Positions 3,643 to 51,679 of a stretch of DNA of 64,000 bases are shown here, in pieces. Below the pieces are notes generated by a model. The model saw only the letters and a list, made by a program, of their open reading frames with translations. It did no database searches and was not told the DNA's origin. The position numbers were made by a program, and so were the translations under genes. The stretch is from Eledone cirrhosa (Eukaryota). The stretch is from the NCBI GenBank assembly GCA_964016885.1, contig OZ024745.1, forward strand, positions 96,038,001 through 96,102,000. Direction: 5' to 3'. Every line of letters starts with the position of its first letter. The stretch's first letter is position 1.

Positions 3643-4115
3643 TCACCATCACCATCACTGTTTCACTGTTTAAAGTCCATTTTCCATTCTGGCAAGGGTT
3701 ACATGAGTTGCTCCATTGTGAGACAAGCCGTGTCTGGTGACCATGACTTGCTCAAACAGGACTGATTTTGGCTTTGCTTCTAACACCAACCACATTTACA
3801 GAGTGAGCTGGGTGCTTTTTATCATGACACCTACATGACTATTTTAAAGTGTGGGCTGGGTGCCTTTTGTCATGAAACCTACTCGACCACTTTACATTGT
3901 GGGCTGGGTGCCTTTTGACATGAAACCTACACAACCACTTTACATTGCGGGCTGGGTGCCTTTTGACGTGAAACCTACACAACCACTTTATATTGTGGGC
4001 TGGGTGCCTTTTGTCATGAAACCTACACAACCACTTTACATTGTGGGCTGGCTGCCTTTTGTCGTGAAACCTACACGACCACTTTACATTGTGGGCTGGG
4101 TCCTTTTTGTCATAC
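3640..4115 (-). mobile_element. RTE-tailed SINE-like repeat with an internal 48-bp minisatellite (~5.5 copies, 3851-4112)
   Basis: Shares the (GAT)n tail and 3' end of the RTE at 42620-42670. Unit GTGGGCTGGGTGCCTTTTGTCATGAAACCTACACAACCACTTTACATT. Related copies near 6190-6500, 14600-15060, 16870-17120(+), 34380-34750, 35270-35700, 43740-43870. Confidence 0.75.
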
Positions 4116-10460: not shown

Positions 10461-10944
10461 AAATCTGAGAAGTTGGAGAAGAAATGATTGTTTATACAAA
10501 CATTTTATAGAGTTAAGTTCAATGTCGGAATATATGCAGTTTAAATTATAAACTTCTCAGTGAAAACAAACAAATGTAAATACATTTTTTTGTACATAGA
10601 AAATTATTAAGGTTATTTTAATATCTTTTTGTCAGTAGACAAGTGCCTCCAAAGAGAAATATAGCAAATATATATTTATATATCAAACACAATACTACTA
10701 CCTGGCTCTTTGGTGCTTTTAATGCAAGTATTCAGGCCAGGTCTCTTATTTGAGGTTACCATCTTTCCTCCCATTCACCAATCTTGGACGGTGTAACAAG
10801 GCTGGACCTTTAGATTACAGTTACAATCTATCTGACAGACTTCTGCACAGTTCGTACCTACTCAATTTGACCTTCAACACTTGAATCAACCTAATGAACA
10901 AACAAAACACTTGCTCATGATATCATGTAGTGGAATTGCTAGTC

Positions 10945-11620
10945 CCTCCAGGATTTTCCATATGTATATTACTGCGTATCTCTCCTGTCTTCGTTCCAAG
11001 GAGTGGAGTTTCAGTTCTTTTAGCCTCTCCCAGTAGCTCATCTCCTTCATTGTGGCAATCCTCTTAATGTAGCTTCATTGGATTGCCTCAAGCTCTGTGG
11101 TTAGTTTGATACTATGGGGTGACCACAGCTGGGAGGAGCAGTAGTCCAGCCAGCTTAGGACAAATTTCCTCCATTGTATCAACATAGTCTCTCGGTCTCT
11201 TGTCTAGAAAGTCCTCAAGATCCAGCCAGCGAGTTGCCTGCACATCGTTGCCACTGTCATGATGTGTGAAGAAAAAGATGTATCATTGCTCATATCTATC
11301 ACCAGATCTCATATCGATTTCGACATGGGGATTTCGATCCCTCGTGGTCCAGTGTAGCTGTGTTGTATTGTCTTTGTGTTTGCAGATTGGTATTGTAGGG
11401 CTTGAAATTTTCCAGCATTAAACTGCCTGTTGTTGTCCTCAGCCCATTTGTATATGGCATCCAGATCTTGTTGTAAAAGGTCAGTATCAGCTGGGTTTTT
11501 GATCGCCTTTGTGTCATCATCATAGATAATAAGGGATGTTGTATGTACTACAGAGGGCATGTCTGAGGGAGCCACCAAAAACAGTGGTGGTCCCAATACT
11601 GTGCCCTGGGGCACCCCACT
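10945..11620 (-). mobile_element. CR1/L2-group LINE RT fragment
   Basis: 'VPQGTVLGPPLFL...YDDDTK...LQQDLDAIYKWAEDNNRQFNAGKFQ'; frameshifted. Confidence 0.85.
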
Positions 11621-11685
11621 TTTATATATATATATATATATTAATTCAAAATATTAACAAAAATAGACATTCGTGTGATCAAGTA

Positions 11686-11752
11686 TATTTTATTATACAT
11701 ATTTCAGAGGTACTGAGCTAACTTCAACAGTACGTCCTCAGCAGATAAAATA
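11686..11752 (-). ncRNA. mirror copy of hammerhead A1 with a mutated core (CUGCUGA)
   Basis: Reverse complement of 12941-13007 with A6->C. Confidence 0.7.
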
Positions 11753-12940
11753 AGATGATGCATGACATACTCTGACATAGTAGATGGTTAAGATTCAGTC
11801 ATGGTAGTGAATAAGATATGACAAAACGCAATATTTATATACCTTAAGATTGAGACATGAACAAATTTACATATAATACAGAGGGTGCGTGTGAGAAAGC
11901 TTAAAAATACATAATAGCAATTTACATAACTGTTAGAGATTCAAATAATTTAAATTATTGAAGAAAGAAGAAAGAAAGAAGAAAGACAGAGAGAAACAGA
12001 TGAGGAGAAAATATAGTTACTAGAAGTATAGAAAGCAAAAGAGAATTGATCAAGGATAGAGAGACAAGGAGGAATAATTTTTATAGTATAAAGCATAGGG
12101 AGGAAGGTTTGTATTGTCGTGGATAAATAGCGTGTGATTAGATAATGCAAAAATTATATATATCTATACAAACACATGAATATACATTTAGGCATAGCTT
12201 TGTGAAAGAGTAAACTCGAATCTTTGAATTATTGAATTATCTAGAAGTATCCATCAATCTAAATATTAAATATATCTGATACATTTTGATTAATTCATTA
12301 TTCTAAACTAACATAAATGATTTGAAATTTAATGGTCAGCCAGATACGTTTGGATATATATAGTGTATATAATTAATTGTTAGTATATTTCTAATTAACT
12401 AAGGACTCGAAATTAAACCCAGATATATTTAATATTTAGATTGATGGATACTTCTAGATAATTCAATAATTCAAAGATTCGAGTTTACTCTTTCACAAAG
12501 CTATGCCTAAATGTATATTCATGTGTTTGTATAGATATATATAATTTTTGCATTATCTAATCACACCCTATTCATCCAAGACAATACAAACCTCCCTCCC
12601 TATGCTTTATATTATAAAAATTATTCCTCCTTGTCTCTCTATCCTTTATCAATTCTCTTTTGCTTTCTATACTTCTAGTAACTATATTTTCTCCTCATCT
12701 GTTTCTCTCTGCCTTCTTTCTTTCTTCTTTCTTCAATAATTTAAATTATTTGAATCTCTAACAGTTATGTAAATTGCTATTATGTATTTTTAAGCTTTCT
12801 CACACGCACCCTCTGTATTATATGTAAATTTTTTCATGTCTCAATCTTAAGGTATATAAATATTGCGTTTTGTCATATCTTATTCACTACCATGAAGAAT
12901 CTTAACCATCTACTATGTCAGGGTATGTCATGCATCATCT

Positions 12941-13007
12941 TATTTTATCTGATGAGGACGTACTGTTGAAGTTAGCTCAGTACCTCTGAAATATGTATAA
13001 TAAAATA
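12941..13007 (+). ncRNA. minimal type-I hammerhead ribozyme A1
   Basis: UAUUUUAU-CUGAUGA-GGACGUACUG..CAGUACCUCU-GAAA-UAUGUA-UA|AUAAAAUA: perfect 8-bp helix I, 10-bp helix II with one C.C mismatch, self-complementary helix III. Confidence 0.85.
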
Positions 13008-13320
13008 TACTTGATCACACGAATGTTTATTTTTGTTAATATTTTGAATTAATATTAATAACTCCGGAAAACCAATACTGTTGAGTTCTTCCAATCTATT
13101 GTAAAACTCATTCTTTGATTTATTCATTGAACCTTGTTTAACCTTTAAATATATATATATATATCTTTCTTTTTCTCCGTAACCCAACGGCTTATTTTAA
13201 AAATATCCAATACTAATAATATAATTAAAGTTACAACTCCACTATCCGGGAGCTTCCAACAGTAATGGTTGCATTCTTTAAGGGTATGTAAATATTTATT
13301 TATAAAACTGATCTATATTA

Positions 13321-13385
13321 TATTTTATCTGATGAAAGCACACCATAATTTAACTTGGTGTCCTTGAAATATGTGTAATGAAATA
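13321..13385 (+). ncRNA. minimal type-I hammerhead ribozyme A2
   Basis: UAUUUUAU-CUGAUGA-AAGCACACCA..UGGUGUCCUU-GAAA-UAUGUG-UA|AUGAAAUA: helix II sequence differs from A1 but pairing is kept. Confidence 0.85.
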
Positions 13386-13615
13386 AATATGGTTTTATAA
13401 ATATAGTTTCCATTTGTTAATATCGTATTTTTACTCCAAAGTTGAGTGCTTTATATAAGTTATAAAAATATTTGCTTGTTGTATCCCAACAATTTAAATA
13501 GAACTTTTACATATATATATATATATATAAATATATAAATATATATATATAAATATATATATATTAAACTTTAATCTGTTATTTTAATAAATATATATAT
13601 ATATAAATATATTTT

Positions 13616-14406
13616 CTAGGGCGAGTAAAATTCTCGAGATCCATGGACGAGTTCTCTCCAGCGGTCTCTGTCCCTCATTATCGCTGCCATGTCCTGCGTC
13701 TCCAACAGACTAGTGTCTGTCCTTAGGGCATCAACATACGTTAACCTTGGTCTTCCTCTTCCAGTGTGTCCATCTAGGGGCTCCCACAGGAGCACTGAGT
13801 GCAATGTCAACTCTGGATGTCGGTGAGCATGTCCAGCTAACCTCAGTCTCCTCTGTGTCACTTTTGAGCTGACATTTGGGAGCCTCCCATACAGCTTTAC
13901 TGTAGCACCAGCTCAGAGCAGGAGAGTTAAGGCGAAAAAGATATCAGATGCTGAATTTGCCGACGACATAATTTTGGTGACAAATACAGTGAAGGAGGCA
14001 GAGGATTTGATGCAGGAGGTTGAGACTGTGTCGATGAGTGTGTGACTGAGAATGAATGAGACTAAAACAAAATATCTGGTAGAGAATGTTGAGAAGCCAG
14101 AGGGGATCACTAATGTAGGTGGGAAGCCGCGAGAATTGGTGGAGGACTTCCTGTATTTGGGAGCAAAGATGGGAATACGGAAGATGATGTGGTTGAGAGG
14201 AAGAGCAAAGCCTGGACGGCGTGCCACAGCTTGAGATCGGTGTGGAAGTCGGAACTTTGTAAAGACGTGAAAATCCTCCTCTTCATTGCTGTAGTGGAGT
14301 CTGTGCTGCTGTACGGGTCTGAGACTTGGACACTGACCAAGAAACTCACTCAGATGGTGGATGGGTGGTACACGAGAATGCTGAGGATGGCTCTGAACAT
14401 TAATCA

Positions 14407-14408
<2 letters not shown>
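13616..14408 (-). mobile_element. RTE/RTE-X-type LINE fragment with 5' inversion, in (TA)n
   Basis: The minus-strand 3' piece (LYGRLP..RRLRLAGH..GRP..DRDRW, 13616-~13905) is joined to a plus-strand upstream piece (FADDI..YLG..LLYGSETWTL..RMALNI, ~13913-14408). Confidence 0.8.
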
Positions 14409-14462
<54 letters not shown>

Positions 14463-16400: not shown

Positions 16401-17470
16401 TTATATGTTGGTTTCCTGGATGTTTTGCTATCATTGCTGCTGTTACTATTGCTGTTGTTACTGTATTTCTTGTTGTTGTTTTATACATTTTAACTGTTCT
16501 GAATGAACGAAACTAAAAATATATAAACAGTCAGTATTTGATTAACCAAATTAATTTAACTATTTTCTAAGCAGCAAAAATTTAAACGAAGAAATACATA
16601 AAACAAGAATGAAAGAAGAAAATAAAATGTTAATGAAATGCAGAAATATACATACATACATGCATACTTATATACATACATACATATATGCATACTTATA
16701 TACATACATGCTTACGTACATACATATATACATAAATATATATATATATATATATGTATATGTGTATGTGTATATGTATATATTATATTATATTATTTAT
16801 ATATATATATATATGTATATACACACACAAACACACACACACATATATATAAATGAGATCGAGATTGTGTAGGTGTCACGAGAAAATAAAACACACAGTC
16901 ACGCTGTAATGTGGCCGTGTAGGTAACATGGCAAAAAGTTCCCAGTTCCACACTGTAAATGTGGTTGGTGTTAGGAAGGGCATCCAGCCGTAGAAAACCT
17001 GCCAGATAGTCCTATATGAGCGAGACACGGTCACCCGACCAATCTTGACTCAAATTGGGACAACTACCATCTAACCCATGCTAGCGTGAAAAATGGACGT
17101 TAAACGAAGATGATGATGATATATATATATATACAAAAGAAATTTTTGAATAATAAAATTAGATGCTAATTTGGTTCACTAGTTTGATTTTCAATTTTTT
17201 GTTTACATATTTGTTAATGATTTAATGACCTGAAGCATACTTTTACTAAATTTACTAGTGTTTAGGATTTTAAATACATTTCAGACAGCATGTAGTCGAA
17301 TACATGAATAATGAGGAAATTGTAAGATTTAGAAAGTTGGATGAACATGGTAAGCAAATGGAAACACACTTGTTCTGAATACACTTTGCGGCAGTTAAGT
17401 TGTATTATTGTTAAGGGGTATTGTGATTGGGTATTGAAATGTATTATATAAACTAGTAGAATCTAGTCTA

Positions 17471-17519
<49 letters not shown>

Positions 17520-17762
17520 TTTTCTTTATTAACCACAAGGGTTTACATAAAGTAGACATTAAGGACAGTACAGGACAATACAGGACGGTACAAATGGGCA
17601 TTTCTGCGTGTAAAAAAAACAGAGGTTGAAATAAAATAACAAAGAAAAATTCCCCAATAGGGGGGAGACTTCCGAGGGACATTTGTGGAGAAAGCCCATT
17701 AAAAGACCACAGTGGCCCTGACCACCAGGGCAAGTGCCCTCTCCCAGTTTTCCACCTTTAAT

Positions 17763-20700
17763 TTACAGACACATACTCAGAGTAGGCCCATTCACTCGGG
17801 TCATACTTGCTTCTATCACCCATCTTTCAACAAAATGCTGGGAAGAGAGCACTTCCCTCTCTACCCTGATTTTCGTTTTCAAATGAAATTTGAAAAAGTG
17901 AATCAGTGCATCAGCGAAGAGGTAAGTGCTTGTCTTCAGCCCTTTCAAACGTGTCCACCATACTATCTCTTTCGCCATGGCCACCAGACAGATAAAAACT
18001 GCCTGCCCTTCCCGGCTAAAGGAAGAGTGCGGGGCAATCCTCACGATGGAGTCAGCTGATAGCTGGATCCGTCCTTCACGTGACAGCAGGTGTTCGACAT
18101 AAACCCACAAGTCAGCAATGCTCGGACACTGGACGAGTGCGTGCAGGACGGTTTCGTCGCCCTGCGCGCATCTCGGACATGCCCGGCTGACGGCACCTCC
18201 ATGCCTGTAGAGTTTATGCCGAACTGGCAAAGCTCCTCGGTAGCACTGCCAGGCCAGGGATTTCTGGAAGTTGTCCATAGGCCCTAGCCCGAAAGTCCTT
18301 CCGAAGAGATTGGCTAGTTGATTTTCGTCGACGCCTAGAGTTTCTCCTAGTACGTCGTCGCTCTTCCCCTCCACTAATCCTCTATAGAACGCCAAGGTGG
18401 AGTTTCCACCGATCACATTGCCCGATTGGTCGAGGGCTGTGAGCTCCTGAAGACATTCCAGTCTCCAAGCGCTCCCTCTCGGTCTTCGCTTGACCCAGGA
18501 CTGCAGCTCCGTCAAGGAGACGAGCTGGGGAAAGACGTGTCTAGCAAACGGCGACCACACCTGATCACCGTCGAGGAAGAGGTGGAGATGTCGTAGCCTG
18601 AGTGCGTGTCTGCGCATCATCAGCCACGGCATGCCCAGCCCTCCACGTAGCGGGTGTTGACAGCAGATGGACCGCCTGATCATCGGAGCGCGTCCCTTCC
18701 ACAAAAAGCGAAAGAGCAAACGCTCCAGCGCAGTCAGGCGGGGCTTAGGACAAGGTACGACGGTCAGGCGGTAGTAGATGACGGACGCGGTGTACGCGTT
18801 AGCCACCTCCGCTCGACCTTTCAGGTATAGCTTCCTCTCCGCCCATTTCTGGGTGAGAGAAGCCACCCTGCTCGTCACCTCGTCCCAGTTTTTGTCCGTC
18901 TGGAGGTTCGGACCGAACCAAACCCCTAGCAATTTAACCGGTCCGTCCGTCCAGCGCCCGACGACGCTGTTGGACGGCATGGACCTGCCTCTCCAGGTGC
19001 CGAGCTGCAGGCCCACTGACTTTTCCTGGTTGATCATTGCTCCTGTCACAGCTTCGTATTCTCTTGGTGTAGTGCCGATCGCCTCGATGTGTTTGGCGGT
19101 CTACACCACTACGGTGACATCGTCCGCATATGCTGACACGGATCTTCCGCATCCTAGTTCGTGCGGGACCTCCCTCAACGTCTCCAGTTTGTGCAGTAAT
19201 GGCTCGAGAGTCAATACGTACAAGAGGGACGAGAGGGGACATCCTTGGCGGACCGAGCGCATGATGTTGAACGGTTCCGAAAGGTGACCGTTTACTCTTA
19301 CCACAGAGCAGATGTCGCTGTGCATGAAGACGGGCCCAAAGCCAGCCATCCTCAGGACTGCCGCTAGGTAACGATGGTCGACCCTATCGAAAGCTTTCGA
19401 CTTATCTAAATTGATCAAGGACCCACCCATGCCAGGTTCCCTAGCTACCCTCTCTACGATGTATCGCATGAGGTGGAGGTTGTCGTAGATGGATCTGTCG
19501 GGAATAGCGCATGTCTGTGCCTCTCCCACCAGACCACCAACCACAAGCGCCAACCTCTTTGCTAGCACCTTGGCCAAAATCTTGAACTCTGTGTTTCGCA
19601 GAGTTATGGGCCTGAAATTACTTCGGATCCTGAAATTGTTCGGATCCTTTCACAGCAGCGCCACAGCTCCTCGGCTCACAGAGCTGGGAATTCTCCCGTT
19701 CTGTTGCCAGTTGCAGTAGACGTCCGCCAAGAGGCCTCCGAACAAGTCTGGCATCTGTACGTGAAGTTCATAGGGCAGACCATCCAAACCAGGCGATTTA
19801 CCCCTTGTGCAGCCAGTCATTGCCTCCCGTACTTCAGCGGCTGTTATCAGCTTTTCGCAACACTCCGCCTCAGTGGCCGAGAGCCGCGGCAGATCGTCGA
19901 GGTAGACACTAAAGTCCATCCCTCTATCCGGCCCGCCGCTGCTCCCAAACAGCTGTGCGAAGTGTCGCTGAAAAGCTTCACACATTTGCCCGGGATCGAG
20001 TAGCATGCGCCCGTCGTGGTCCACCAAAGTTCGGATAGTGGCTTTGTTGCCAAGACACGCCTCCGCCACTCGGGCCCATTGACCGGCTTTCGTCCCCTCA
20101 TGTCTGAAAGCACGCACCCTAGCTCTGACAACACAGCCTTCGTGCTTTGCATTGAAGAATTGGGCAAGGGCCAATTTCGCCGCAAGTACGTCGGTCGCGA
20201 TGCCTTTGCTTAGCGCCTCGTCTAATTTTCTAACTAATTTTCCCTCTGCTCTATTTTTCTCTATTGCTAAAGCCTTACTAAACCTAATGGACTCTATTCT
20301 AATTGCTCTTTTCAGAGCAAACCACCACTTGTTGTTGACGATGGCCCCCCGTCAACGCCCGCTTTACTAGTTCGCTAATCCGGTCTCTATATGCCTTGCG
20401 CGCTGGTAAGGACGCGTTTAGCTTCCAGTAGCCGGGTCCTCGTCTATGAAGCCTATCTAAGTCAAGCACACAGATCACGAATTTGTGGTCCGTGTAGCTG
20501 ACTATCTTGAATTGTGGACAGCCTATGCTAGACCTATCTATTTCCCTACAAAATACTCTATCTAGATATGATCTGGATGACCCTATACGATTTGTCCAAG
20601 TCCACATTGGCACATTCGGGAAATCCAATCGGTACCTGTCAGACAGTTCAAAACGCCTGAGCAGGTTGGTGAAACTCTTGGTCCCCTCCTCCCCTATCCG

Positions 20701-21166
20701 CTAATCCCACACAGTCCCAGCGTGCATCTAAGATCCCGTTCCACTCGCCCACTAACACTAAAGCGCCGGACGTTCCAAGAAGGGTCTCCAGACGCCGGAA
20801 GAAATGAAGCCGCCCTGCTCCTGTCGGGGCATAGACGGCCACTAGCCTGAAAGCTTGCCCGTCTCCGCTGGTCACGTCCAGCACCACCAACTTACCTTCT
20901 GGGTCCAGGAAGATGGCCCGTATAGCGAGATCCAAACCTCTCCGAAAAATCACAGCAACTCCTCCCCCCGATCCCGGACGGCTGGGAGATGCGTACACAG
21001 CGTAGCTGCCGAAGATCGGTGCGAAGGCCCGTGCTTCGGAGATTCTGGTCTCGCTGATGGCCACTACAACTATGTTTAGTGACCTGAGGTCGTTGAGCAG
21101 GTGGCCTTGCTTCCATGACGACCCCAAGCTACGCGCATTTATGCTGCCTATTCTGAGTGAGGTCAT
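17763..21166 (-). pseudogene. LINE ORF2 (AP endonuclease + reverse transcriptase + Zn finger), disrupted
   Basis: 'IGSINARSL..ISET..VYAP..SYLDRV..TDHK' (APE); 'KSPGLDGLPYE..LDKSKAFDRVDH..RQGCPLS..YADDV' (RT); 'CPRC...ETVLHALVQC'. Split into at least 5 ORFs by frameshifts. Confidence 0.9.
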
Positions 21167-21172
21167 GTTGAA

Positions 21173-23156
21173 ATGGAGTGGAAAAGATGGGAAAGACCAC
21201 TTACCTTACTTCTCGTAGAGGAAGGACGGTTTTTCCATCCTTTTCACTGCTTGTGGCCTCAGGAAGGATGTCCTTATAAATCCTCCTGGAGAGTGCTTGT
21301 CGGAAGTCTCCGATGTCTTTGGGGAATTTTTGTTTTAGTGTCATGTACGTTTTCTGTGTGATGCGAGTGATTTGTATGTGTGGAGGTGGTGTGAATTTTT
21401 GGGTTGTTGTGTAGTCTTTTTCTGTGATGCTGGTGTTGTGTTGGATGTAGTGTAATAATTGGTTGTTGTTCAAATTTAATGCTGTGTAGTGAGTATCGTT
21501 TTGGTTGTTTTGTTTTGTTGTGGGTTTGTTTCTGTTTCGCTTTTTGGTGACTTTTGTGGTGTAGGTGATGGTGGTGTTGGGGTTAATGATGGTGATGGTG
21601 TTGGTGTTTGGGGTGATGGGGTTGGTGAGGCTGGTGTGGATGGTGGCATATCTGTCCTAACTTTTTGGTTTGATAGTTTATTTGTTTTCCTCTGTATTTT
21701 GTTTTGGGAGGGGGAAGGAAGAGAATTTTTTCTTTTTTGGTTTCTTTTTCTTTTTTTCTTTTTTCCTGATACCGTTTCCCACTCCTCGTCGTCACAATCT
21801 GTCTCCAATTGCGATAGGTCGGGGAGTGGAAAATCCTCCACAGGCGTTGGTTTTGGTTGTGGCGTGGTAGATTGTGTAGGCGCTGGTGCTAGTTCTGGCG
21901 CGTTGGGTGGTGGTGGTGGTGGTTTTGCTACTGTTGCTGGGGTTGTTGCTGTTACAGTTGCTTCTGTTGTTGCTGCTACAGTTGTTGCTGCCATCTCTGC
22001 TGCTGGTGGTGTTGATGGTTGAGTCACTGGGGTGGGTAGGAGAGGTGGCCTCAACCTTTTAGCCTGAGGGAAGAAAGCCCTTAGGTGGGTTCCTTCACCA
22101 CAAACGACACACCTAGGCCTTCTGCCCTCGACAATTACGGTGAGGTGGCTGCCGTCAGTGAGGTCTATTACCTCTGGGATCTCCTCAATGCTTTTTTGGT
22201 CCGCTTGGATCAGGAGCTCCATCCCAGATCCGGACCAGTTCTCCTGCTTTTCTTTCGCTATTTCGATTATCTTGGTGTTCGCTTCGATGCCGGCGAGGAC
22301 GGCAGCTATTAGCCAGGGAATTTCGATAGCCGGTGGAACGTGGGTGACCCTGATCTTTACGAGTCTCTGGCCACAATAGCTTGGGATGAGCATGAAGTTG
22401 TCACTTCTTAATGGGGCCATGGAGTGTTCTCTAGCCTCCTGAGGTGTTTCCAAGAACACGTCCACGGTTCCATACTTCTACCCACGTCTGATGTGGGTTT
22501 TTTTTTCCCACACATGTCCCAAAGCTTTTTGGATTTGGGACTCCGATGCCAGTTCCACTCGGCGCGATTTTATATTAATTGTTCGATAAGACACGGTGCA
22601 TAGGCGTTGATGCTCCACTTTATTAGGTGTGTGTGTGTGGGGGGGGGGTGACCCTGTACCCATCTTTCTTTACCATTTTTTTGGCTTCTTCTAATTCCTT
22701 CTGAGTTACCTGAAATGGTTCGCACTGTTTTGCTACTCTGGCAAAACTCAGGGTGGTTTTCTTAATGTCATTGTTGCTGTTGTTGTTATCGTTATTTTTG
22801 TTATTATTAATTTTAGTTTCAGTTGTGGTGGTGGTGGTGGCGGCAGTGGTGTTCGGTGTAGAAGAGTTCATTTTGGTTGAATTCATTTCGATATCACGAG
22901 TTAATTTATTTTTTTCTTTTGTTTCTGTTGTCGCGCTGGTGGTGGGGGTGGTGGTTGTCGCGGCGGTGGTGGTGGTGGTGGCGGCTTTAACACCTGCAGT
23001 AATTGGTAATGGCGGGAAATGAATGTCTGCCTGAGACAAATTTAAAATATTTCTACTGCTTATATTTTTAGTGTTGGCAAACGTAGTAATATTTACAATG
23101 GTGGTGTCGGTGTGAGGTGTTAGTTTGTGAGAAAGGAGTGACTCTGAGTCAGCCAT
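21173..23156 (-). pseudogene. LINE ORF1 (nucleic-acid-binding, degenerate CCHC knuckle)
   Basis: ORF pieces 22623-23156, 22478-22663, 21476-22465, 21201-21473; 'GRRPRCVVCGEGTHLRAF', basic KKKRKR stretch, Thr/Pro tracts. Confidence 0.8.
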
Positions 23157-23370
23157 GATTTTTCAAAGAAAAATTTTTGTTTGATAATTATAAAAGTTTA
23201 AATTTTGGGCTCAAGGCCCCAATCTTTTTGGGTGTCCTTTTCAGATAACAATGTATGTGCACTTATATACAGTTAACAATAAAATTTTTCCATGAATGGT
23301 AATTTTAAACAACTGAAAATAACAAACCTTTGCGGAGCTCACGATGATACGATTTACTACGTAGGTCGCC

Positions 23371-23419
<49 letters not shown>

Positions 23420-23422
23420 TTA

Positions 23423-24378
23423 ATGTTTTCTTTAATAACCACAAGGGTTTACATAAAGTAGACATTAAGGACAGTGCAGGACAATACAGGACGGTACAAA
23501 TGGGCATTTCTGCGTGTAAAAAACAAAAACAGAGGATGTAACAAAAAATAACAATGAAAAATTCCCCAATAGGGGGAGACTTCGGGGGACATTTGTGGAG
23601 AAAGCCCAGTAAAAGGCCACAGTGACCCTGACCACCAAGGTAAGTGCCCTCTCCCAGTTTTCCACCTTTAATTTACAGATACGTACTCAGAGTAGGCCCA
23701 TTCACTCGGGCCATTCTTGCTTCTCTCACCCATCTTTCAACAAAATGCTGGGAAGAGAGCACTTCCCTCTCTACTCTGATTTTCCTTTTCAAATGAAATT
23801 TGAAAAAGTCAATCAGGGCATCACCGAAGAGGTAAGTGCTCGTCTTCAGCCCTTTCAAACGTGTTCACCATACTATCTCTTTCGCCATGGCCACCAGATA
23901 GATAAAAACTGCCTGCCCTTCCCGGCTAAAGGAAGAGGGCGGGGCAATCCTCACGATGGACTCAGCTGATAGCCGGATCCGTCCTACACGCGACAGCAGG
24001 TGTTCGACATAAACACACAAGTCAGCAATTTTCGGACACTGGACGAGTGCGTGCAGGACGGTTTCGTCGCCCTGCGCGCATCTCGAACATGTACGGCTGA
24101 CGGCACCTCCATGCCTGTAGAGTTTATCCCGAACTGGCAAGGCTCCTCGGTAGCATTGCCAGGCCAGAGATTTCTGGAAATTGTTCATAGGTCCCGGCCC
24201 GAAAGTTCTTCCGAAGAGATTGGCTAGTTCATTTTCGTCGACGCCTAGAGTTTCTCCAAATACGTCGTCGCTCTTCCCCTCCACTAATCCTCAAAAGAAC
24301 GCCGAGGTGGAGTTTCCACCGATCACATTGCCCGATTGGTCGAGGGCTGTAAGCGCCTGAAGACATTCCAGTCTCCAA
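23423..24378 (-). mobile_element. 5'-truncated second copy of the Tx1-like LINE
   Basis: High similarity to 17517-18468; (AAT)n on both sides. Confidence 0.9.
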
Positions 24379-25139: not shown

Positions 25140-28100
25140 AAAACAACAAAAAAGAAAACCCCGTGATCAAGAAAAACCGGGATGGCGGCCGGCGGGGAAT
25201 AGCCGTGTCTCTAGGGGAGAACGACCCCTCTAGTCTTGGTTGACACTCGTTCTAGAAGTGGTAACACGAAATGATTACCCCTTGGCGGATAAGGATAAAA
25301 CGCGACAAAATAAAGTAAATGTCTAATGATAAAATCTCATACCGGATCGGCCGTCACCCGGGTAAAAAAGGGCCGCGTCCCTCAGAGAGGAACCAGACTT
25401 TTGTCGAAAACTCAGCTAATGGTTCAAACCTTCCCATCACTTCGGAGCTGGAGACCTCCCATAACCGGAATACTCCTACTGTTGGCCCTCTATGCTCACC
25501 ACCAAGAAATCCAAAGAAAAAGAGAGAAAAATGGTCAAGGGAAGATAATAAAGAAGTCCTTGAGGCTTTCTACAATGCCATGTACTACCCATCAAATACA
25601 TCGAATACAGAACAGACATATATCAACTGGAAAAAGAAACATCCCGAAAACAGAGGCTATATTGACAGTAACAAACTAGCCAATATACGAAGAAATATTG
25701 TAAAAAAAAAGTTACTAACTGATATAGAAATTGATCAGATCAAGCTATTAGCACAAAGTCAGCGAAGGGAAAATGAAACATGTGTCAGTGAAAACGAGGT
25801 AAATTGTAACACTTCGAATCCCAGGGGTGGGGCGGAATCGCTGGCAACAGAACAAATTAAAGAAAGGATCGAAAAAGTGGAGGGAGTGCATGCTCAAGAT
25901 GAAACTCCAAATGAAAATAATGAGATCGTAAAGGATAAAGAAATGAATGAGAATGAACTTGCCAACTTGAAGGATGAAATTATGATCGAATGGATGAAAA
26001 TGAAAGAATCTGACATGGGGCAACGAGACACCCTCCCTAAGATCCAGAACTCCAAATAGAACCAAAAGATAATACACAAGATTAACATAATTCTCAAAAA
26101 CATTATCATCACAAACAAACTAAACATTACTGATTTAAATCATCTCTATTATGTATCGGCTAAAGTCACCACTCACTTATGTGGAGTGAAGATGAAAAAA
26201 CAAAGGAATTCCCACAAGAAATCTACTTGGCAAGAGAACATCAATCGCCAAATAAACCTTCTCCGATCTGACATAGAAATTTTAACAAACTATAAAGTAG
26301 GTGAACATGTTAAACAAACTAAACTTAGAAAATTGAAAAGAAAGTACAGTATAAAATCAACAAGTGACATAGACATGCTGATAGAAATAATCAAGCAAAA
26401 AGTGTCGGCCAAAGCTGCTCGTATAAGGCGCTTTGAAAAACGATCTAGATTCTATAAGGACAATATGTTCAAAAACAACCAAAGAAACTTCTACAGAAAA
26501 ATTGGTAAGTCAACAATAACTGCTAAATCAATACCACCCAAGGAGGAAGTGCAAGAATTCTGGGAAAAGATCTGGGCCGAAGAAAAAGTTCATTACATAC
26601 ATGCCCCATGGATAGACAGACAAATGAAAGATACAGCTCACCTTGAAGAACAAATATGGGAAAATATAACAGTTGAACAGTTGCGCTTGGCTCTAAGAAA
26701 AACCAGCAAATGGAAATCCCCAGGAAAAGACAAAATACAAAATTTTTGGATAAATGCCTTCACAGAGTCTCATGAGCTGTTAGCCCAACTTTACAATGAA
26801 ATAGTTAAGGAGCCAGAAAAGATACCATCATGGCTAGTTAACGGCATTACATTCCTGCTTCCGAAGAATGATGAGACAAACAATCCCCAAAATTACAGAC
26901 CGATAACCTGCTTGACCACAATGTATAAAATTTTAACATCAGTCCTAACTGAATATACATATGACCACCTGATAACAAATGACCTATTTCCCATTGAGCA
27001 GAAAGGGTGTAAACGAGGCTCATATGGCTGTAAGGATCAGCTTCTGGTTAACACAATGATACTGGAAGATTGTCATAATAGACACAAAAATCTATCAATT
27101 GCTTGGATAGATTATAAAAAAGCATTCGATAGTTTGCCACACAGTTGGATTGAAAAATGTTTAGAGATTTTCAAAATATCCCCCGTTGTCAGGAGGTTTT
27201 TGTCATTCAGTATGAAGACATGGAAAACGACACTCATTTTGAATAGTGAAACAAAATCACTGGAAGCTGGAGAAGTTAATATTAATTGTGGAATTTTTCA
27301 GGGTGACTCTTTATCACCGCTTTTATTCTGCATCGCACTTATACCATTAAGTAAAATGCTCAATGAAACAAAACATGGATATAAAGTCTATGACAAAACC
27401 ATTAATCACTTGTTCTACATGGATGACCTGAAACTATTTGCAAAAAATGATGAGCAATTGCAAGGGCTATTATCCACTATGGAGCAGTTCAGTGATGACA
27501 TTAAAATGGAGTTTGGACTAGATAAATGCGCCAAAGCAACGTTCACCAGAGGAAAGCTGCTGAAGAGTTCAGACATTAATCTTGATCGGGGGAATGTGAT
27601 AAGAGAACTTGATCAAGAAAAAACTTACAAATATCTAGGTGTTTGTGAAGGAGACGGAATCAAGCACTCGACAATGAGGGAAAGGATAAGGTAGGAATGT
27701 TACCGCAGAGTAAGAGCAATCTTAAGAACGGAATTGAATGCAAGGAATAGGATCGATGACATAAACACGCTTGCCATACCAGTAGTAATCTACAGTTACA
27801 ATGTCATCAACTGGTCAAGCACAGAGATCCGTAGGCTCGATACAAAAATTCGAAAATTCTTAACCATGCACAGAATGCATCACCCTAAGGCAGATACAGA
27901 TAGAATATATCTCCCTAGGAAAGAAGATGGACGTGGGTTAATCCAGTTAGACATTGCGTTGAAAACTGCAACAATTGGATTATCTACATATCTAAGGGAA
28001 TCACATGATTGGATGATCAAACTCGTTTTGAAACACGAAAGCATCAAAAGATCATACTCCATTACAAAAGATGCACAAAGATACAGTAATGGACTACACA

Positions 28101-29110
28101 TTCCAGAAGTCCCATTTACTGCTGAAATGGAAAACACAGAAAAAGCAAAGCAGGTAAAAGTAACTGCAAAGAAAGAACTGCTACAGAAACTGGCTAAGAA
28201 ATGGCAAGAAAAGCCTCTGTATGGAAAATACCCAGAGCGAGCTAACAATCCTGATGTTGACAAAACTTTAACCCATCAGTGGTTGGCATCCTCTGGACTG
28301 AAATCGGAGACTAAAGGACTGATTATATCAGCACAAGATCAGTGTCTGCCAACAAAAAATTACCAAGCCAACATAATAAAAAATGGATGCAGCCCATTAT
28401 GCCGTGTATGCAAAAAACAACCAGAGACCATTGACCATATAATTTAAATGTGCAGTCCTATAGCTCCAACCGAATACCTAAACAGGCATGACAGAGCTGC
28501 ACAATACATACATTGGATAATGTGTAAGCATTTTGACCTGCCCCCATCAAAAGAATTGGTGGGAGCATCAACCACCTCCCATACTTGAAAAAGATCACAT
28601 CTCAATCTTGTGGAACTTTAGCATCCAAACAGACCGAAAAATAGATGCAAATAGACCTGATATAATATTGAAGGACTTTAAAAAGAGGGTATGCCTGCTA
28701 ATTGATATGTCCGTTCCAATAGACAAGAATGTATCTATAAAAACATTTGAAAAATTGAGCAAGTATAAGGACCTGGAGATAGAAATTGGAAAAATGTGGA
28801 AATTGAGAACTAAAACAATACCAGTGGTTGTAGGCGCTCTGGGAATGATACCTAAGGGGTCTACTGATTACTTATCGCAAATCCAAGAAACCCGCGTATA
28901 GGAGAAACACAAAAGATAGTACTAATGGGAACTGCCCATATACTAAGGAAGATTCTGTCAATATAAGTACATCACAAGTCTAAACACTAAAGATGCATGT
29001 GTGAGTATGTATGTTCTTTCTTGAACATGGTGGACCTTGTTGTCTCTTGAGGTCACTGGTTGTGACTTGGTGATAACTCGTATGAACATAAAGCAAGATA
29101 AATGCAACTG
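25140..29110 (+). mobile_element. near full-length R4/Dong-clade non-LTR retrotransposon ending in (TAA)n
   Basis: Single ORF with RT, CCHC and restriction-like endonuclease; (TAA)n tail at 29111-29127. The 5' boundary is approximate. Confidence 0.9.
25319..28966 (+). pseudogene. R4/Dong ORF (RT + RLE endonuclease), disrupted
   Basis: 'WKSPGKD..NYRPITCL..IDYKKAFDS..GIFQGDSLSPLLF..YMDDLK'; 'CRVC....ETIDHI', 'RHD', 'NRPDI..LIDMSVP..KLSKYKDL'. In-frame stops at 26059, 27694 and 28447, then frameshifts. Confidence 0.9.
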
Positions 29111-33564: not shown

Positions 33565-35782
33565 TGTGTGTGTTTATGTATTTTATGAAAATTTGTGTCT
33601 GATACTCCGTCTTATTGGTGCCTTGTCAGCTGTCTGTTGGGACTCATAGAAAAGATTTCATCAATGTAAAGTACACTAAAATGTTGGCAGATATTACCTG
33701 TAGTGGTAAATTCATACACGTCAGTTATTATGTAAAACTATTTTGCTCTATGACAAAAAATCTTAAGGTAGGAAAACACTGGAACACTACATACATATGT
33801 ATGTTCTCTTTCACTTAATTTCGAGTACATTTTTTACTGGCCACGTTCCTGGTGGCAAGGTTGTAAAAGAAAGAAAATTATCATCCCTTGAATCGCAAGA
33901 ATATTTTGCAAATGTTGAAGGTGTCAGATATCGTGGCCATTTGTAGTTAGGGAGCTGCACTCTTTATGCACAAATCCAAGTTCAGCCATACTTTGGTCCA
34001 AGCAGGTTGGTATATAACCTGTAGCTCCAATAATAATGGGTATGAAGCTGAAGGTGTATCTTGGATACTGGATCTGCAAACTCCTCATCAATGGTCCGTA
34101 GATGTCCTCCTTCTCTTGTATTTCTCTTACATCGTTGACATGAAGTGGGTAGCTGATCTCTACAACAGAGCACGTTTTCAATGTGTGGTCCCAAACAACA
34201 ATATCAGCCCGGTTGTGCTTTAATTTGGTGGCAGTTTTTATTTTCAGGTTCCACCAGTATTCTTTAGTGCCATCTATCTCAACATATTCTTTCTCATTCG
34301 TTTTTAATTTTGTTTTCCTTAGTGCATTCCATATGTATGTGTGTGTACATATGTACATGAATACCTGTGTGTGTGTCATCATCATCATCATCACGGTTTT
34401 ACGTCCATTCTTCCACGCTAGCATGGTTTAGGCAGGTTGTCCTGTTGTGGCAGTGCCCGGTCGACTGACCTTGTCTTGCTCATACGGGAACTGATTCTGG
34501 CTTGATTTCTACAGCTGGATGCCCTTCCTAACACCAACCTCATTTACAGTGAGTGCTGGGTGCTTTTTTTCCATGGTGCCTACACGATCATTTTACAGTG
34601 TGGGCTGGGTGCTTTTTTGCCGTGGCACCTCCACAACCACTTTTCAGTGGGAGGAGGTGGGGAAATATTGTCTATATGCTTCAGCTTCGACTTGTACCTG
34701 TGGGAAGTCGGGTCTTCTGTATTACTGCGTGATGCCAGAGGTCACGGTCCTGTGTGTATGTGTAAATGTATGTATATATAAATATATGTATATATAATGA
34801 GAGAGAGAGAAAGAAAATCCAAATGTTAGGAGATTAAGGATTTCTATACAAATTGTGTTATATAGGAAAAACGATAAAGATTTAAAAAAAAAAAACACCT
34901 AATGTGTTTTCATTTTATAAACATGTCACGTGAAATAAAAATGAGAAAAAATTTTTTTTTACATCAAAAAGAATAGTTTATGTACTTTTGTACTTACATG
35001 CTACATGTAGAGTAAACAATAAAAGGATTTATTTACATCAAAAACAATAGTTTTTGTAGTTTTTTTTGTACTTGACCGATTTCACTTAAAAAACAGCTTT
35101 TCAAAACTTTTTCCGTGTTTAATTTACTAGCTTTCCACTTAAAACACAAATGACAATGACATTACAAATGGAAAACTATAAATGTGGCCTGTATATCAGA
35201 TAGAAGCACATTAGGTGTTTTGTTTTGTTTTCAAATCTTTATCATCTTTCCTATATGTGTATATATATAATCATCATCATCGTTTAATGTCCATCTTCCA
35301 CGTTTGCATGGGTTTGGACGGGAGTTTTCCCACTTGAGGCAAGATTGGTATTGGACTGTCTGGCGGGTTTTCTACGGCTGGATGCCCTTCCTAACACCAA
35401 CCACGTTTACAGTGTGGACTGGGAGGTTTTTACCATGTTACTTACACGGCCACATTACAGCGTGGACTGTGTGTTTTTCGTCGTGACACCTACACGTCTG
35501 GCGGGTTTTCTACGGCTGGGTGCCCTTCCCAACACTAACCACGTTTACAGTGTGTACTGGGAGGTTTTTACCATGTTACCTACACGGCCACATTACAGCG
35601 TGGACTGTGTGTTTTTTTTGTCGTGACACCTACACGACCTCATTTGTTTCGGACTGGATGTTGTGGTACCAACATAACTTCACATTTAAGGGGGTGGTGT
35701 GGATGGGGATATATATATATATATATATAGTAATCATAATAAATGTGAAGACTAAAATCCAAAGAGGGCTCAATAAGGATAA

Positions 35783-38475: not shown

Positions 38476-40784
38476 GAACTATTATGACATTATAACAAGT
38501 TTATTGCCGACAGTCGTTTCGTCCGACCCCATGGTGGGACTTATCAAGGCATATAACATGTGATTGCAAGATCATTGTTTACATCAACGTATCACTCAAG
38601 GCTAACAGTTTGAAATTGTTGTATACATCAGCAACTCCGCTTTAAGGGGGGGCTCTTTTATATTAGTTGTCGGGGTCAGGGATTGAAGTTTAAAAATTAG
38701 ACAAAAATATATAATTCACGCATCAACATTAAACCAAGAGACTTGGGGTCCCGTAGAAGCACCTCAGAAAATCCCTCAATGAGTGCATAAAGCTTACAGG
38801 CTCCAATACACCTATTAGTCTAGAAGAAAATTAAGAGGCTAATAAAATAAGAAAATAAAAATATAAAGTTTCCCTAAAAAATATATAGAGTTCCTATGAA
38901 ATTTCTTCTAGAGAAAAAAAATTTTTTTCCGAAAGAAAAAAACCTTCTTCCCCCGAGATCACGTTTACAAAATTCAGAAAACTGAATTGAAAACTAGGTT
39001 GAAAGAAACTAATCAATTAGAGGTTAATTCAGAGAGCCTTCCATAAATCTCTCAGAAAAGGCCCCTTTACTATTTCCAATAGGAACTTCTTCCGAGAAGA
39101 ATTAAAATTTTAGAGAGCCTTTGAGGATAAATATAAAAACGAATTGAGGAAAATTATACATTAAAAGTTAAAAATTAAAAATTAAAAATTACGGTATTTG
39201 GGATATCCGAGGAATTTTCAAAGGGCTGCTTCAACAGATACAACTTAGGCATAATAGGTACAATAATCTAAGCAATTTAAGCAATTTAATTAGGGAGCAA
39301 CTCAAGGAGTTTATCAAGTTGGGCAAGATTAAAGAAAGTGGTAACTAAGAAAATACATAAGCAAAAAGACAATAATCATAAAATGTATCTCTAAGAAGGT
39401 ACAAGGTAGCTTCAGTGATCTAACCCCGTATTATCACAAAAAAACATTCTAAAGTCATTGATACAGGATTAAAAATTATTACAAAATCATTACAAAATTA
39501 CCACAAAATCATTACAAAATTATCAAATCATCACAAAATTACCACAAAATCATTACAAAACTATCAAATTATCATAAAATTATCGCAAAATTATTACAAA
39601 ATTATCATAAAATTATTGCAAAAATATAACAGGATGAACATTACTGGTGACCGTGTGGGCGCGATATCCATTCTGCCTATGCAGAATGGATATCGCGTAG
39701 GCAGAATGGATATCGCGCCCACACGGTCACCAGTAATGTTCATCCTGTTATATTTTTGCAATAATTTTATGATAATTTTGTAATAATTTTGCGATAATTT
39801 TATGATAATTTGATAATTTTGTAATGATTTTGTGGTAATTTTGTAATGATTTTGTAATAATTTTTAATCCTGTATCAATGACTTTAGAATGTTTTTTTGT
39901 GATAATACGGGGTTAGATCACTGAAGCTACCTTGTACCTTCTTAGAGATACATTTTATGATTATTGTCTTTTTGCTTATGTATTTTCTTAGTTACCACTT
40001 TCTTTAATCTTGCCCAACTTGATAAACTCCTTGAGTTGCTCCCTAATTAAATTGCTTAAATTGCTTAGATTATTGTACCTATTATGCCTAAGTTGTATCT
40101 GTTGAAGCAGCCCTTTGAAAATTCCTCGGATATCCCAAATACCGTAATTTTTAATTTTTAATTTTTAATTTTTAATGTATAATTTTCCTCAATTCGTTTT
40201 TATATTTATCCTCAAAGGCTCTCTAAAATTTTAATTCTTCTCGGAAGAAGTTCCTATTGGAAATAGTAAAGGGGCCTTTTCTGAGAGATTTATGGAAGGC
40301 TCTCTGAATTAACCTCTAATTGATTAGTTTCTTTCAACCTAGTTTTCAATTCAGTTTTCTGAATTTTGTAAACGTGATCTCGGGGGAAGAAGGTTTTTTT
40401 CTTTCGGAAAAAAATTTTTTTTCTCTAGAAGAAATTTCATAGGAACTCTATATATTTTTTAGGGAAACTTTATATTTTTATTTTCTTATTTTATTAGCCT
40501 CTTAATTTACTTCTAGACTAATAGGTGTATTGGAGCCTGTAAGCTTTATGCACTCATTGAGGGATTTTCTGAGGTGCTTCTACGGGACCCCAAGTCTCTT
40601 GGTTTAATGTTGATGCGTGAATTATATATTTTTGTCTAATTTTTAAACTTCAATCCCTGACCCCGACAACTAATATAAAAGAGCCCCCCCTTAAAGCGGA
40701 GTTGCTGATGTATACAACAATTTCAAACTGTTAGCCTTGAGTGATACGTTGATGTAAACAATGATCTTGCAATCACATGTTATA

Positions 40785-40831
40785 TGCCTTGATAAGTCCC
40801 ACCATGGGGTCGGACGAAACGACTGTCGGCA
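40785..40831 (+). ncRNA. minimal hammerhead ribozyme with U3-A8 variant core (mirror copy 38505-38551, - strand)
   Basis: UGCC-UUGAUAA-GUCC..GGAC-GAAAC-GACU-GUC|GGCA; helices I, II and III are all present. Confidence 0.75.
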
Positions 40832-40984
40832 ATAAACTTGTTATAATGTCATAATAGTTCCTTTGTTCTTTTTCACTAATATTTCTGCTCTGCGTATGCG
40901 CATAGAGCTTAACTAGCTACCGTCACATATTTGGTAAGTCAGACGTGATCATCGCGATTCACATACGTCCTACCATACATCTTA

Positions 40985-50433: not shown

Positions 50434-51175
50434 CACACACATATATATATATATATATACATATACATATGTGTAGCGACGCTGGTTGGTCAGTCTAGTC
50501 ACTACTTCTGATCAGATCCGAGAATAGTCCTTAGAAGGACTGTTTTCGCATACGGTCTGATCAGATCTGAAGATAGCTCTTAAAAGGACTGTTGTCGCAT
50601 ATAGCCCTTAAAAGAACTGTTGAGGATGGACAGACGAAAGCACAAGTTGAAAGGACGAAGCAAGGCGAGATGTAAATTCGATCAGTTATTTATTTTCACA
50701 TGAAGCAACGATACGGAGTACAAGGCAATGCGTGTGTGAGTGACAAAGCGTGGCAGAGTAAAGGAACAACGATACGCTAGCTGACTCTGCCAAAAGTCGA
50801 CTAGTGAAAGTGTTAGGAACCACTCTATTTATACAGGAACAATCCTTTGTTGTTTATGTGGGTATGGTGTGGCGTGCGGGGGGGGGGGGGGGGTGGAGTG
50901 CTCGACCGGAAGGGGTCTTTGACCGGAAGGATGCTCGACCGGAAGAGCCAGGAGAGGGCCTCTCTCTAGTGGTGACCAGCATACGGTGAGGACGCGTTTT
51001 GGGGCAGCTCCCGGTGTTAAGCAGTCGGACGCACGTGGAAGAGGAGTACCTGCTGTGGAATTTAGCGGCGCCTGTGAAAAGCGGTAAGTGAGATAGCTTT
51101 TTCTAACCACAAGCTATTTCGGCGACTGAAAAAAAAAAAAAAAAAGAGAACACTTGCCGCAAAACAAATCAGAAG

Positions 51176-51640
51176 ATGGCGACAAGACTACGGATGAACG
51201 AAGCTATCAGGCCATTCACCGGGGAGGGTGATGTTGTCGCTTGGCTGCGGAAGGTTCGGCTGGTCGCAGGCTTGCAGAAGATAGAAGACGTGGCCGGTCT
51301 CATTGCATTGTACCTCGGGGGCGACGCGTTGGTACTCTTCCTAGAGTTGGACGAGCACAGCCAAAGAGATGTGCAGAAGATTGAGAGGCGACTGATGGAT
51401 GCATTCGCCGAGGGACCGTTGGCGGCTTTGGCTAAGCTGGCGAGAATCAGGTGGAATGGTGAGCGCGTCGACATTTTCGCAGCGGAAATAAGGCGGTTGG
51501 CTATGTTGGCCAGTTACCAGGCAGAATGCGAACGCACGGTGCGGTTGGCATTCATCAATGGATTTCCGGACGACATAGCGGTGAAACTGCAGCAAGTCCC
51601 GGGGTACAAGGAGATGGAAATGCGTGGGTGGCGAGGTCAC
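51176..51640 (+). pseudogene. Gypsy gag (truncated)
   Basis: 'IRPFTGEGDVVAWL.KV.LVA.L..LYL.GDAL..AFINGFPD'; fused by a deletion to mid-RT. Confidence 0.75.
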
Positions 51641-51679
51641 GGATGTCTGTGGGGAAACCCTGCGTGAGTGGAGACGCAT

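Follow-up and report, generated by a model that had tools for sequence, protein, structure and literature searches.

Features of the locus

The 64,000-nt stretch of Eledone cirrhosa DNA analyzed here (the window) holds two intact hammerhead cores of type I, the only ones that a generic type I scan detected on either strand; the same scan of 200 block-wise dinucleotide shuffles of the window returned no hammerhead core. The two motifs, HHR1 and HHR2, lie on the same strand, and their predicted cut sites are 378 nt apart. HHR1 belongs to the 3' end of a Hydra-like family (A) of Penelope-like retrotransposons (PLEs), while HHR2 belongs to a truncated fragment of a second such family (B; Table 1). 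A third, inverted hammerhead upstream, a copy of HHR1, is predicted from its sequence to be inactive. The first-pass annotation, which had taken the pair for a candidate retrozyme-like element, overlooked this inverted copy, the (TA)n tract in the middle of the spacer and the rarity of the GUA variant found in HHR2. The cluster is flanked by broken remnants (10700-11620 on the minus strand and 13620-14410, the right one with both orientations), which their translations suggest to be LINE-like RT.

Table 1 Features of the hammerhead cluster in window coordinates.
Feature	Position	Strand	Remarks
(TA)n target tract, left end of inverted A copy	11623..11637	.	Seen in the sequence; many A copies share this end point, followed by (TA)n
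Inverted, 5'-truncated A end	11638..12278	-	Equals 12420-13055 at 97%; directly precedes the forward A piece
Third hammerhead, inverted HHR1 copy	~11686-11752	-	Core CUGCUGA at 11744-11738
3' end of Hydra-like PLE family A	12279..13146	+	3' UTR, hammerhead, short end at 13055, ~90-nt tail to 13146
HHR1, type I hammerhead of family A	12941..13007	+	Predicted cut after 12999 (AUA)
HHR1 helix I	12941-12948/13000-13007		8 bp
HHR1 core CUGAUGA	12949-12955		Helix II GGACGUACUG/CAGUACCUCU, then GAA, then helix III segment AUAUGUAU
Proposed 378-nt RNA	13000..13377	+	Chimera: 147 nt of A downstream sequence and tail, (TA)n, B upstream of cleavage
(TA)n tract	13146..13164	.	(TA)n in which the A insertion ends and meets the B insertion; mid-spacer
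pLTR fragment of Hydra-like PLE family B, truncated at its 5' end	13162..13511	+	-215 to +134 relative to cleavage
HHR2, type I hammerhead of family B	13321..13385	+	Predicted cut after 13377 (GUA)
HHR2 helix I	13321-13328/13378-13385		8 bp, one G-U
HHR2 core CUGAUGA	13329-13335		Helix II AAGCACACCA/UGGUGUCCUU; GAA; helix III segment AUAUGUGU
(TA)n tract at 3' end of B insertion	13512..13612	.	

Structure and conservation of the hammerheads

Both motifs have the core, the NUH site and helices I-III of the hammerhead class; on sequence grounds they are real type I hammerheads, with cleavage predicted. The first-pass annotation had described two intact CUGAUGA...GAAA cores with an 8-bp helix I, 378 nt apart, and this was confirmed by the scan. 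It had also pointed out that the dissimilar helix II sequences both span ten positions with the same mismatch at position 4, and indeed nine of the ten positions pair in each motif, with C.C at position 4. Similarly, the helix III segments can pair fully with each other as stated there (8/8 between HHR1 and HHR2 when G-U is counted), though weakly (-2.2 kcal/mol). Both segments are 8-nt palindromes, a form that suits dimer folding and agrees with the annotation's assignment of the motifs to the PLE type. The difference between the two segments that it had noted is a rare variant, since the GUA triplet together with AUAUGUGU has 10 exact matches genome-wide, compared with 3,142 exact copies of HHR2 in its AUA form. 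An Rfam scan of the window gave 74 matches at E<=1, all below the gathering score and none to hammerhead families.

Next, we compared 18 copies picked to span the subfamilies (two from the window, one from L002 and 15 from the 30 loci L061-L090). Here, 98.2% of the cells were paired, as against 38-53% in slid controls. Two-sided changes were present in six of the nine helix II pairs, and these represent few independent events because the 18 copies are related to each other. The mismatch at position 4 was kept in all of them (C.C, or C.A in L076). Judged from these copies, the covariation of helix II is real and reflects the divergence between families A and B. Helix II begins with a G-U or A-U pair in place of G-C, and this, as well as the AUA sites, may make for slower cleavage.

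The motifs resemble the minimal PLE hammerheads in the part of Cervera and de la Pena 2014 (PMC4209133) used for comparison: these are of type I with a long helix II and a small palindromic helix III, occur mostly as single motifs from truncated PLEs, and their close pairs are often on opposite strands. Unlike the motifs described there, those of A and B have a helix I of 8 bp and a helix II of ten positions whose position-4 mismatch is conserved across subfamilies, and their first helix II pair departs from G10.1-C11.1, for which strong conservation is reported there.

Two families of PLE contribute to the locus

The family A piece of the window (12279..13146) is 94-95% identical to the A copies L028-L058, with the best 40 of 1,592 candidates scored in the family A genome search. 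In two of these copies (L056 and L057), the same sequence lies ~2.1 kb downstream of an ORF coding for RT and GIY-YIG, and the alignment is unbroken from the ORF to the hammerhead. Copies of A stop at the equivalents of 13055 or 13146 in (TA)n, which is followed by unrelated DNA. PLE insertions with an inverted piece ahead of the forward piece, as seen for A in the window, are described in the consulted part of PMC8557442.

The family B fragment is 94-97% identical to other B copies, which carry more than 1.8 kb of other shared sequence upstream, in the place that family A takes here. Its part from +1 to +134 corresponds to the 5' UTR of full elements. In L112, the stretch matching 13162..13511 lies ahead of the ORF, which has its ATG at +187, and the portion of that stretch as far as about +50 is found again at the 3' end; the B piece of the window is therefore a pLTR fragment whose 'tail' is 5' UTR. 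The fragment stops at an internal ACATATAT, and at the equivalent of 13511 the B copies give way to (TA)n or (CA)n.

Two complete B elements show how the hammerheads are placed in an entire unit. L112 (1990-6434) consists of a 5' pLTR with hammerhead, an ATG 187 nt past the cleavage site, the ORF and a 3' UTR; a second, identical hammerhead follows 3,924 nt after the first, with (TA)n ~50 nt later. Similarly, L117 (449-4872) is framed by identical hammerheads 4,234 nt apart. The hammerhead pair in use is likely to be one such as the two identical motifs 3,924 nt apart around the complete element of L112. An intact same-strand hammerhead was found upstream in 15 of 25 ORF-start loci. The 5' pLTR started between -14 and -1,137 in 23 of these 25 loci and past the cleavage site in two; the long values among these are approximate, as the alignments behind them have low identity.

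The 30 loci L061-L090 gave 34 motif rows, in which four motifs are counted twice where loci overlap. In 31 of these rows, a TA or CA run starts downstream of the cleavage site, at a distance of 49-57 nt in 24 rows and of 139-158 nt in 7. We infer that the RT would prime at TA-like words past the cleavage site, with an uncut precursor or a circle as template; a circular PLE template has already been proposed (PMC4209133, in the portion considered).

Proteins and classification

The ORF frames of family B comprise 743-749 aa in linked copies elsewhere in the genome, and that of family A 477 aa in L056, where the N-terminus was not recovered. The A (L056) and B (L107) proteins share 57% identity over 472 aa. 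Both contain, in a single ORF, the RT motifs YRDD and NFLDV together with a GIY-YIG-type domain at the C-terminus. The linker and endonuclease motifs CxCx5C, CxxC and CxH read CNCRNRPNC, CNLC and CLH in A and CNCRNKSNC, CDLC and CRH in B. Besides that, B has RWR/RWH and SDKTNNLY, and the longest A piece starts at TNNLY. In the protein search with the B piece, the best 150 of 72,245 candidates were scored, all PLE-like families together. Look-alikes in the ESM Atlas scored 0.96-0.99, and some of their members are annotated with HTH_animal, GIY-YIG or RVT_1. Pfam searches with five ORF pieces gave no RT or GIY-YIG family, and a PDB sequence search with the ORF gave nothing significant.

The Hydra clade, as characterized in the relevant part of PMC8557442, combines RT and C-terminal GIY-YIG with RWK, DKT instead of DKG, CxCx5C, CxxC/CxH, hammerheads and (TA)n insertion. 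Families A and B have pLTR hammerheads in direct and inverted arrangement and insert into (TA)n, and the Hydra proteins in the portion of the supplement compared agree with theirs motif by motif when aligned by eye. Based on the motifs, this by-eye comparison and the ESM Atlas look-alikes, A and B are likely Hydra-clade PLEs, and they are additional members of a known PLE type. An assignment of the ORF to the Naiads was ruled out by the C-terminal endonuclease; Naiads are also described, in the same part of PMC8557442, as being without canonical hammerheads.

As in the Hydra clade (Craig et al. 2021, PMC8557442, for the features it gives in the part compared), A and B show copies that are inverted and truncated at the 5' end, and one of their ends carries a tail. 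That clade is generally <3 kb in size, whereas the units of A and B measure 3.9-4.2 kb with 3' UTRs of 1.5-2.1 kb. Their tail of ~85-90 nt compares with 30-40 bp for the Naiads and the PLE scheme of the same paper, and B has RWR/RWH where the clade has RWK. Both protein and hammerhead are visibly unlike those of Hydra-1_Obim in the supplement part compared by eye, and A and B are therefore families other than Hydra-1_Obim. No paper found in our literature search names either of them, and Repbase or Dfam may list them; apparently, they are uncatalogued.

Abundance and arrangement of hammerheads in the genome

We searched the whole assembly (3.0 Gb in 1,796 contigs) for the hammerhead pattern and obtained 24,223 matches, compared with none for the reversed control; HHR1 itself (51 nt) has 335 exact copies. 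Among the first 100 of these motifs, which cover 29 Mb of one contig (C1), pairs within 5 kb were divergent in 15 cases, same-strand in five and convergent in one, with 1.7 expected. The same-strand pairs were spaced by 206, 524, 802, 1,064 and 3,978 nt. Two of 30 anchors, forming one pair, had a same-strand neighbour within 1.5 kb. Clusters mixing families A and B are frequent.

Helix I, the core and AUAUGUAU are common to the subfamilies of the same region (G000:C1, 0-29 Mb), which number at least six by their helix II variants, and a further hammerhead type (AAACGUAC...) occurs beside them. In addition, four head-to-tail copies with a period of 276-308 nt were observed at L093:521-1600 (G000:C5:32484260-32485330). 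The repeat consists of a 13-nt inverted tail, a 158-nt family A end with hammerhead and (TA)n, and the copies have private changes in common, among them damage to the helix III palindrome, which gives them the look of a retrozyme array. A spreading retrozyme was rejected here, as the junction occurs at those four places only; since it is found nowhere else, the array probably arose by duplication on the spot, through (TA)n. Other PLE-like ORF fragments (GIY-YIG or RT) lie beside A or B copies at L024:4956-5711, L040:2752-3345 and L059:4911-5354, which suggests (TA)n hotspots shared by PLE-like elements.

The 378-nt spacer is not a repeated unit

According to the first-pass annotation, the stretch between the cut sites would be a non-autonomous retrozyme, which after excision and circularisation is returned to the genome in trans by a PLE RT. 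Several features fit such an element. In the parts drawn on of the non-LTR retrozyme papers, namely Cervera and de la Pena 2020 (PMC7229834) and Li et al. 2026 (bioRxiv 10.64898/2026.07.22.740005), retrozymes likewise carry a pair of type I hammerheads on the same strand, separated by a few hundred nt. The piece is non-coding, with no ORF of 120 aa, and its GC content of 26% is below the ~45-50% mentioned there; both length and GC fit the metazoan retrozymes in the cited portion of PMC7229834. A PLE origin of retrozymes has also been proposed (bioRxiv 10.64898/2026.07.22.740005, in the portion used).

The comparison with the genome argues strongly against this model. Matches to 12900-13450 (best 40 of 3,144 candidates scored) split at query positions 263-265, which correspond to the (TA)n tract at 13146-13164; among 20 extracted loci, the match runs past this point in the window and L002 alone. 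The motif joining an A end to a B start was found in two places in 3 Gb, again the window and L002, with different junctions, and L002 is without a same-strand A hammerhead. We identified 12 pairs in which an A hammerhead is followed by a B-like one at a gap of 302-362 nt, and all 11 pairs besides that of the window have different spacers, varying in (TA)n length, truncations, inversions and unrelated filler. Outside the hammerhead, the two halves of the piece are unrelated and belong to two families. TRF found no tandem array at 12.9-13.4 kb, and folding was barely better than in shuffles (z -1.85; 5 of 100 equally stable).

The 378-nt piece is not a repeated unit. Unlike the retrozymes in the consulted parts of both papers, it is not a tandem 150-450 bp monomer, its hammerheads come from two autonomous families, and its junction is single-copy. 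The claim that the pair defines a retrozyme-like element does not hold, because it consists of the ends of two PLE families, each present separately in thousands of copies. Copying in trans by a PLE RT fares no better, given the origin of the halves and the lack of any exact genomic match to the circle junction of 13377 with 13000 in an assembly that is possibly incomplete. Altogether, the retrozyme model is largely refuted, and we consider it extremely improbable. Contigs of unrecorded type from three of four sequencing runs (one study) contained, among the listed pieces, none that spans the stretch. A 'go-back' joint from 13360 to 12989 with seven other letters was evaluated as a circle, but the best reading of it is a third subfamily with the same core. 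This common core also makes short-read back-splice calls at 13377|13000 unreliable.

Origin and possible function of the pair

Very probably, the locus represents the ends of two high-copy PLE families, likely of the Hydra clade, with a truncated B copy that likely landed in the (TA)n tail of an A copy; this landing would account for the spacing of 378 nt. As a mechanism, the GIY-YIG endonuclease would nick (TA)n and the RT would start from short words resembling TA that lie 50 or ~135 nt downstream of the cleavage site in the RNA of the element. Every insertion would leave fresh (TA)n that attracts further insertions, and ends would therefore stack at variable spacing. The selected job of the hammerheads is predicted to be the cutting of a unit-length RNA of 3.9-4.2 kb from read-through transcripts, for which they may fold as dimers through the palindromic AUAUGUAU. 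The pair at this locus would be incidental, and any 378-nt product a by-product.

One counterpoint to insertion into (TA)n is provided by L002, where the A tail is joined to B without (TA)n. This older copy (L002:1326-1974) passes from the A tail into the B piece directly via CT-rich sequence, and an inverted A end with shortened helix II lies ahead of the join, possibly as the result of a template switch. The two ends in the window could likewise have been joined in a single retrotransposition event by the RT switching between two PLE RNAs, a scenario that would also be in line with the frequent mixed A/B clusters. In the window, however, (TA)n separates A from B and both stop at the usual end points of their families, and two further loci (L004 and L018) have B cut at the same place behind (TA)n without A. 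We therefore regard template switching at this locus as quite improbable.

An incidental insertion might nevertheless yield a product, and nested insertion is compatible with a read-through transcript in which HHR1 and HHR2 form a cross-family dimer and release a 378-nt RNA that is circularisable and non-propagating. HHR1 and HHR2 have intact cores in the same orientation, their helix III segments complement each other, and their helix I strands can be exchanged for one another. PLE hammerheads have been proposed to act as dimers, with low in vitro activity even in this form (PMC4209133, in the part cited). The energetics, however, are unfavourable: forcing the active fold costs 8.1 kcal/mol (A) and 4.2 kcal/mol (B) locally and 14.1 kcal/mol for both within 12900-13450, in addition to the weakness of the helix III duplex. 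If transcription also covered the inverted copy upstream, 66 of 67 HHR1 bases would pair into a long hairpin, and the locus is without a known promoter, with LINE remnants as flanks. Release of such an RNA is thus improbable.

On a more speculative level, and with only a slim chance of being correct, nested Hydra ends may serve as a nursery of retrozymes, with cross-family heterodimers, chimeric circles and a full unit that circularises as template. Heterodimer activation across families is possible because the palindrome AUAUGUAU is common to all sampled subfamilies. If true, ~1,000 chance same-strand pairs (an extrapolation from four pairs within 1.1 kb among 100 motifs), including the 378-nt one, would release chimeric small circles, and circularisation of the 3.9-4.2 kb unit would provide a more-than-unit template. 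Such a circle would explain ends at +50 and +135 as well as 5' pLTRs reaching back from ~15 to >1,000 nt.

Under the favoured reading of nested insertion, the locus itself is minor, being one among many chance stacks of PLE ends. Two Hydra-like families with ~24,000 hammerhead motifs, long open frames and a clear end geometry, in which insertions stop at TA-like words 50 or ~135 nt past the cleavage site and the tail is 5' UTR, are a useful by-product of the analysis, and the genome is well suited for testing the role of PLE hammerheads, in particular whether they excise the unit RNA as a dimer and whether it then forms a circle. As a warning, where two hammerheads lie close together and their helices seem to covary, they can be the ends of two paralogous transposons and not a single element.

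Other repeats in the window

Besides the hammerhead cluster, long stop-free frames of up to 544 aa, some of them GC-rich, were found at 17395-23672 (minus strand), 25319-28901 (plus strand) and 51107-53786; these are probably other retroelements. An inverted repeat at 38476-40860 has arms of 1,100 nt that are 99% complementary and lie 185 nt apart; it holds 11-nt and 7-nt tandem arrays and is possibly foldback or MITE-like. Finally, a 48-49-nt repeat occurs as tandem arrays and dispersed copies (3787-4113, 34535-34649 and 35358-35636) and is likely part of a SINE-like family.
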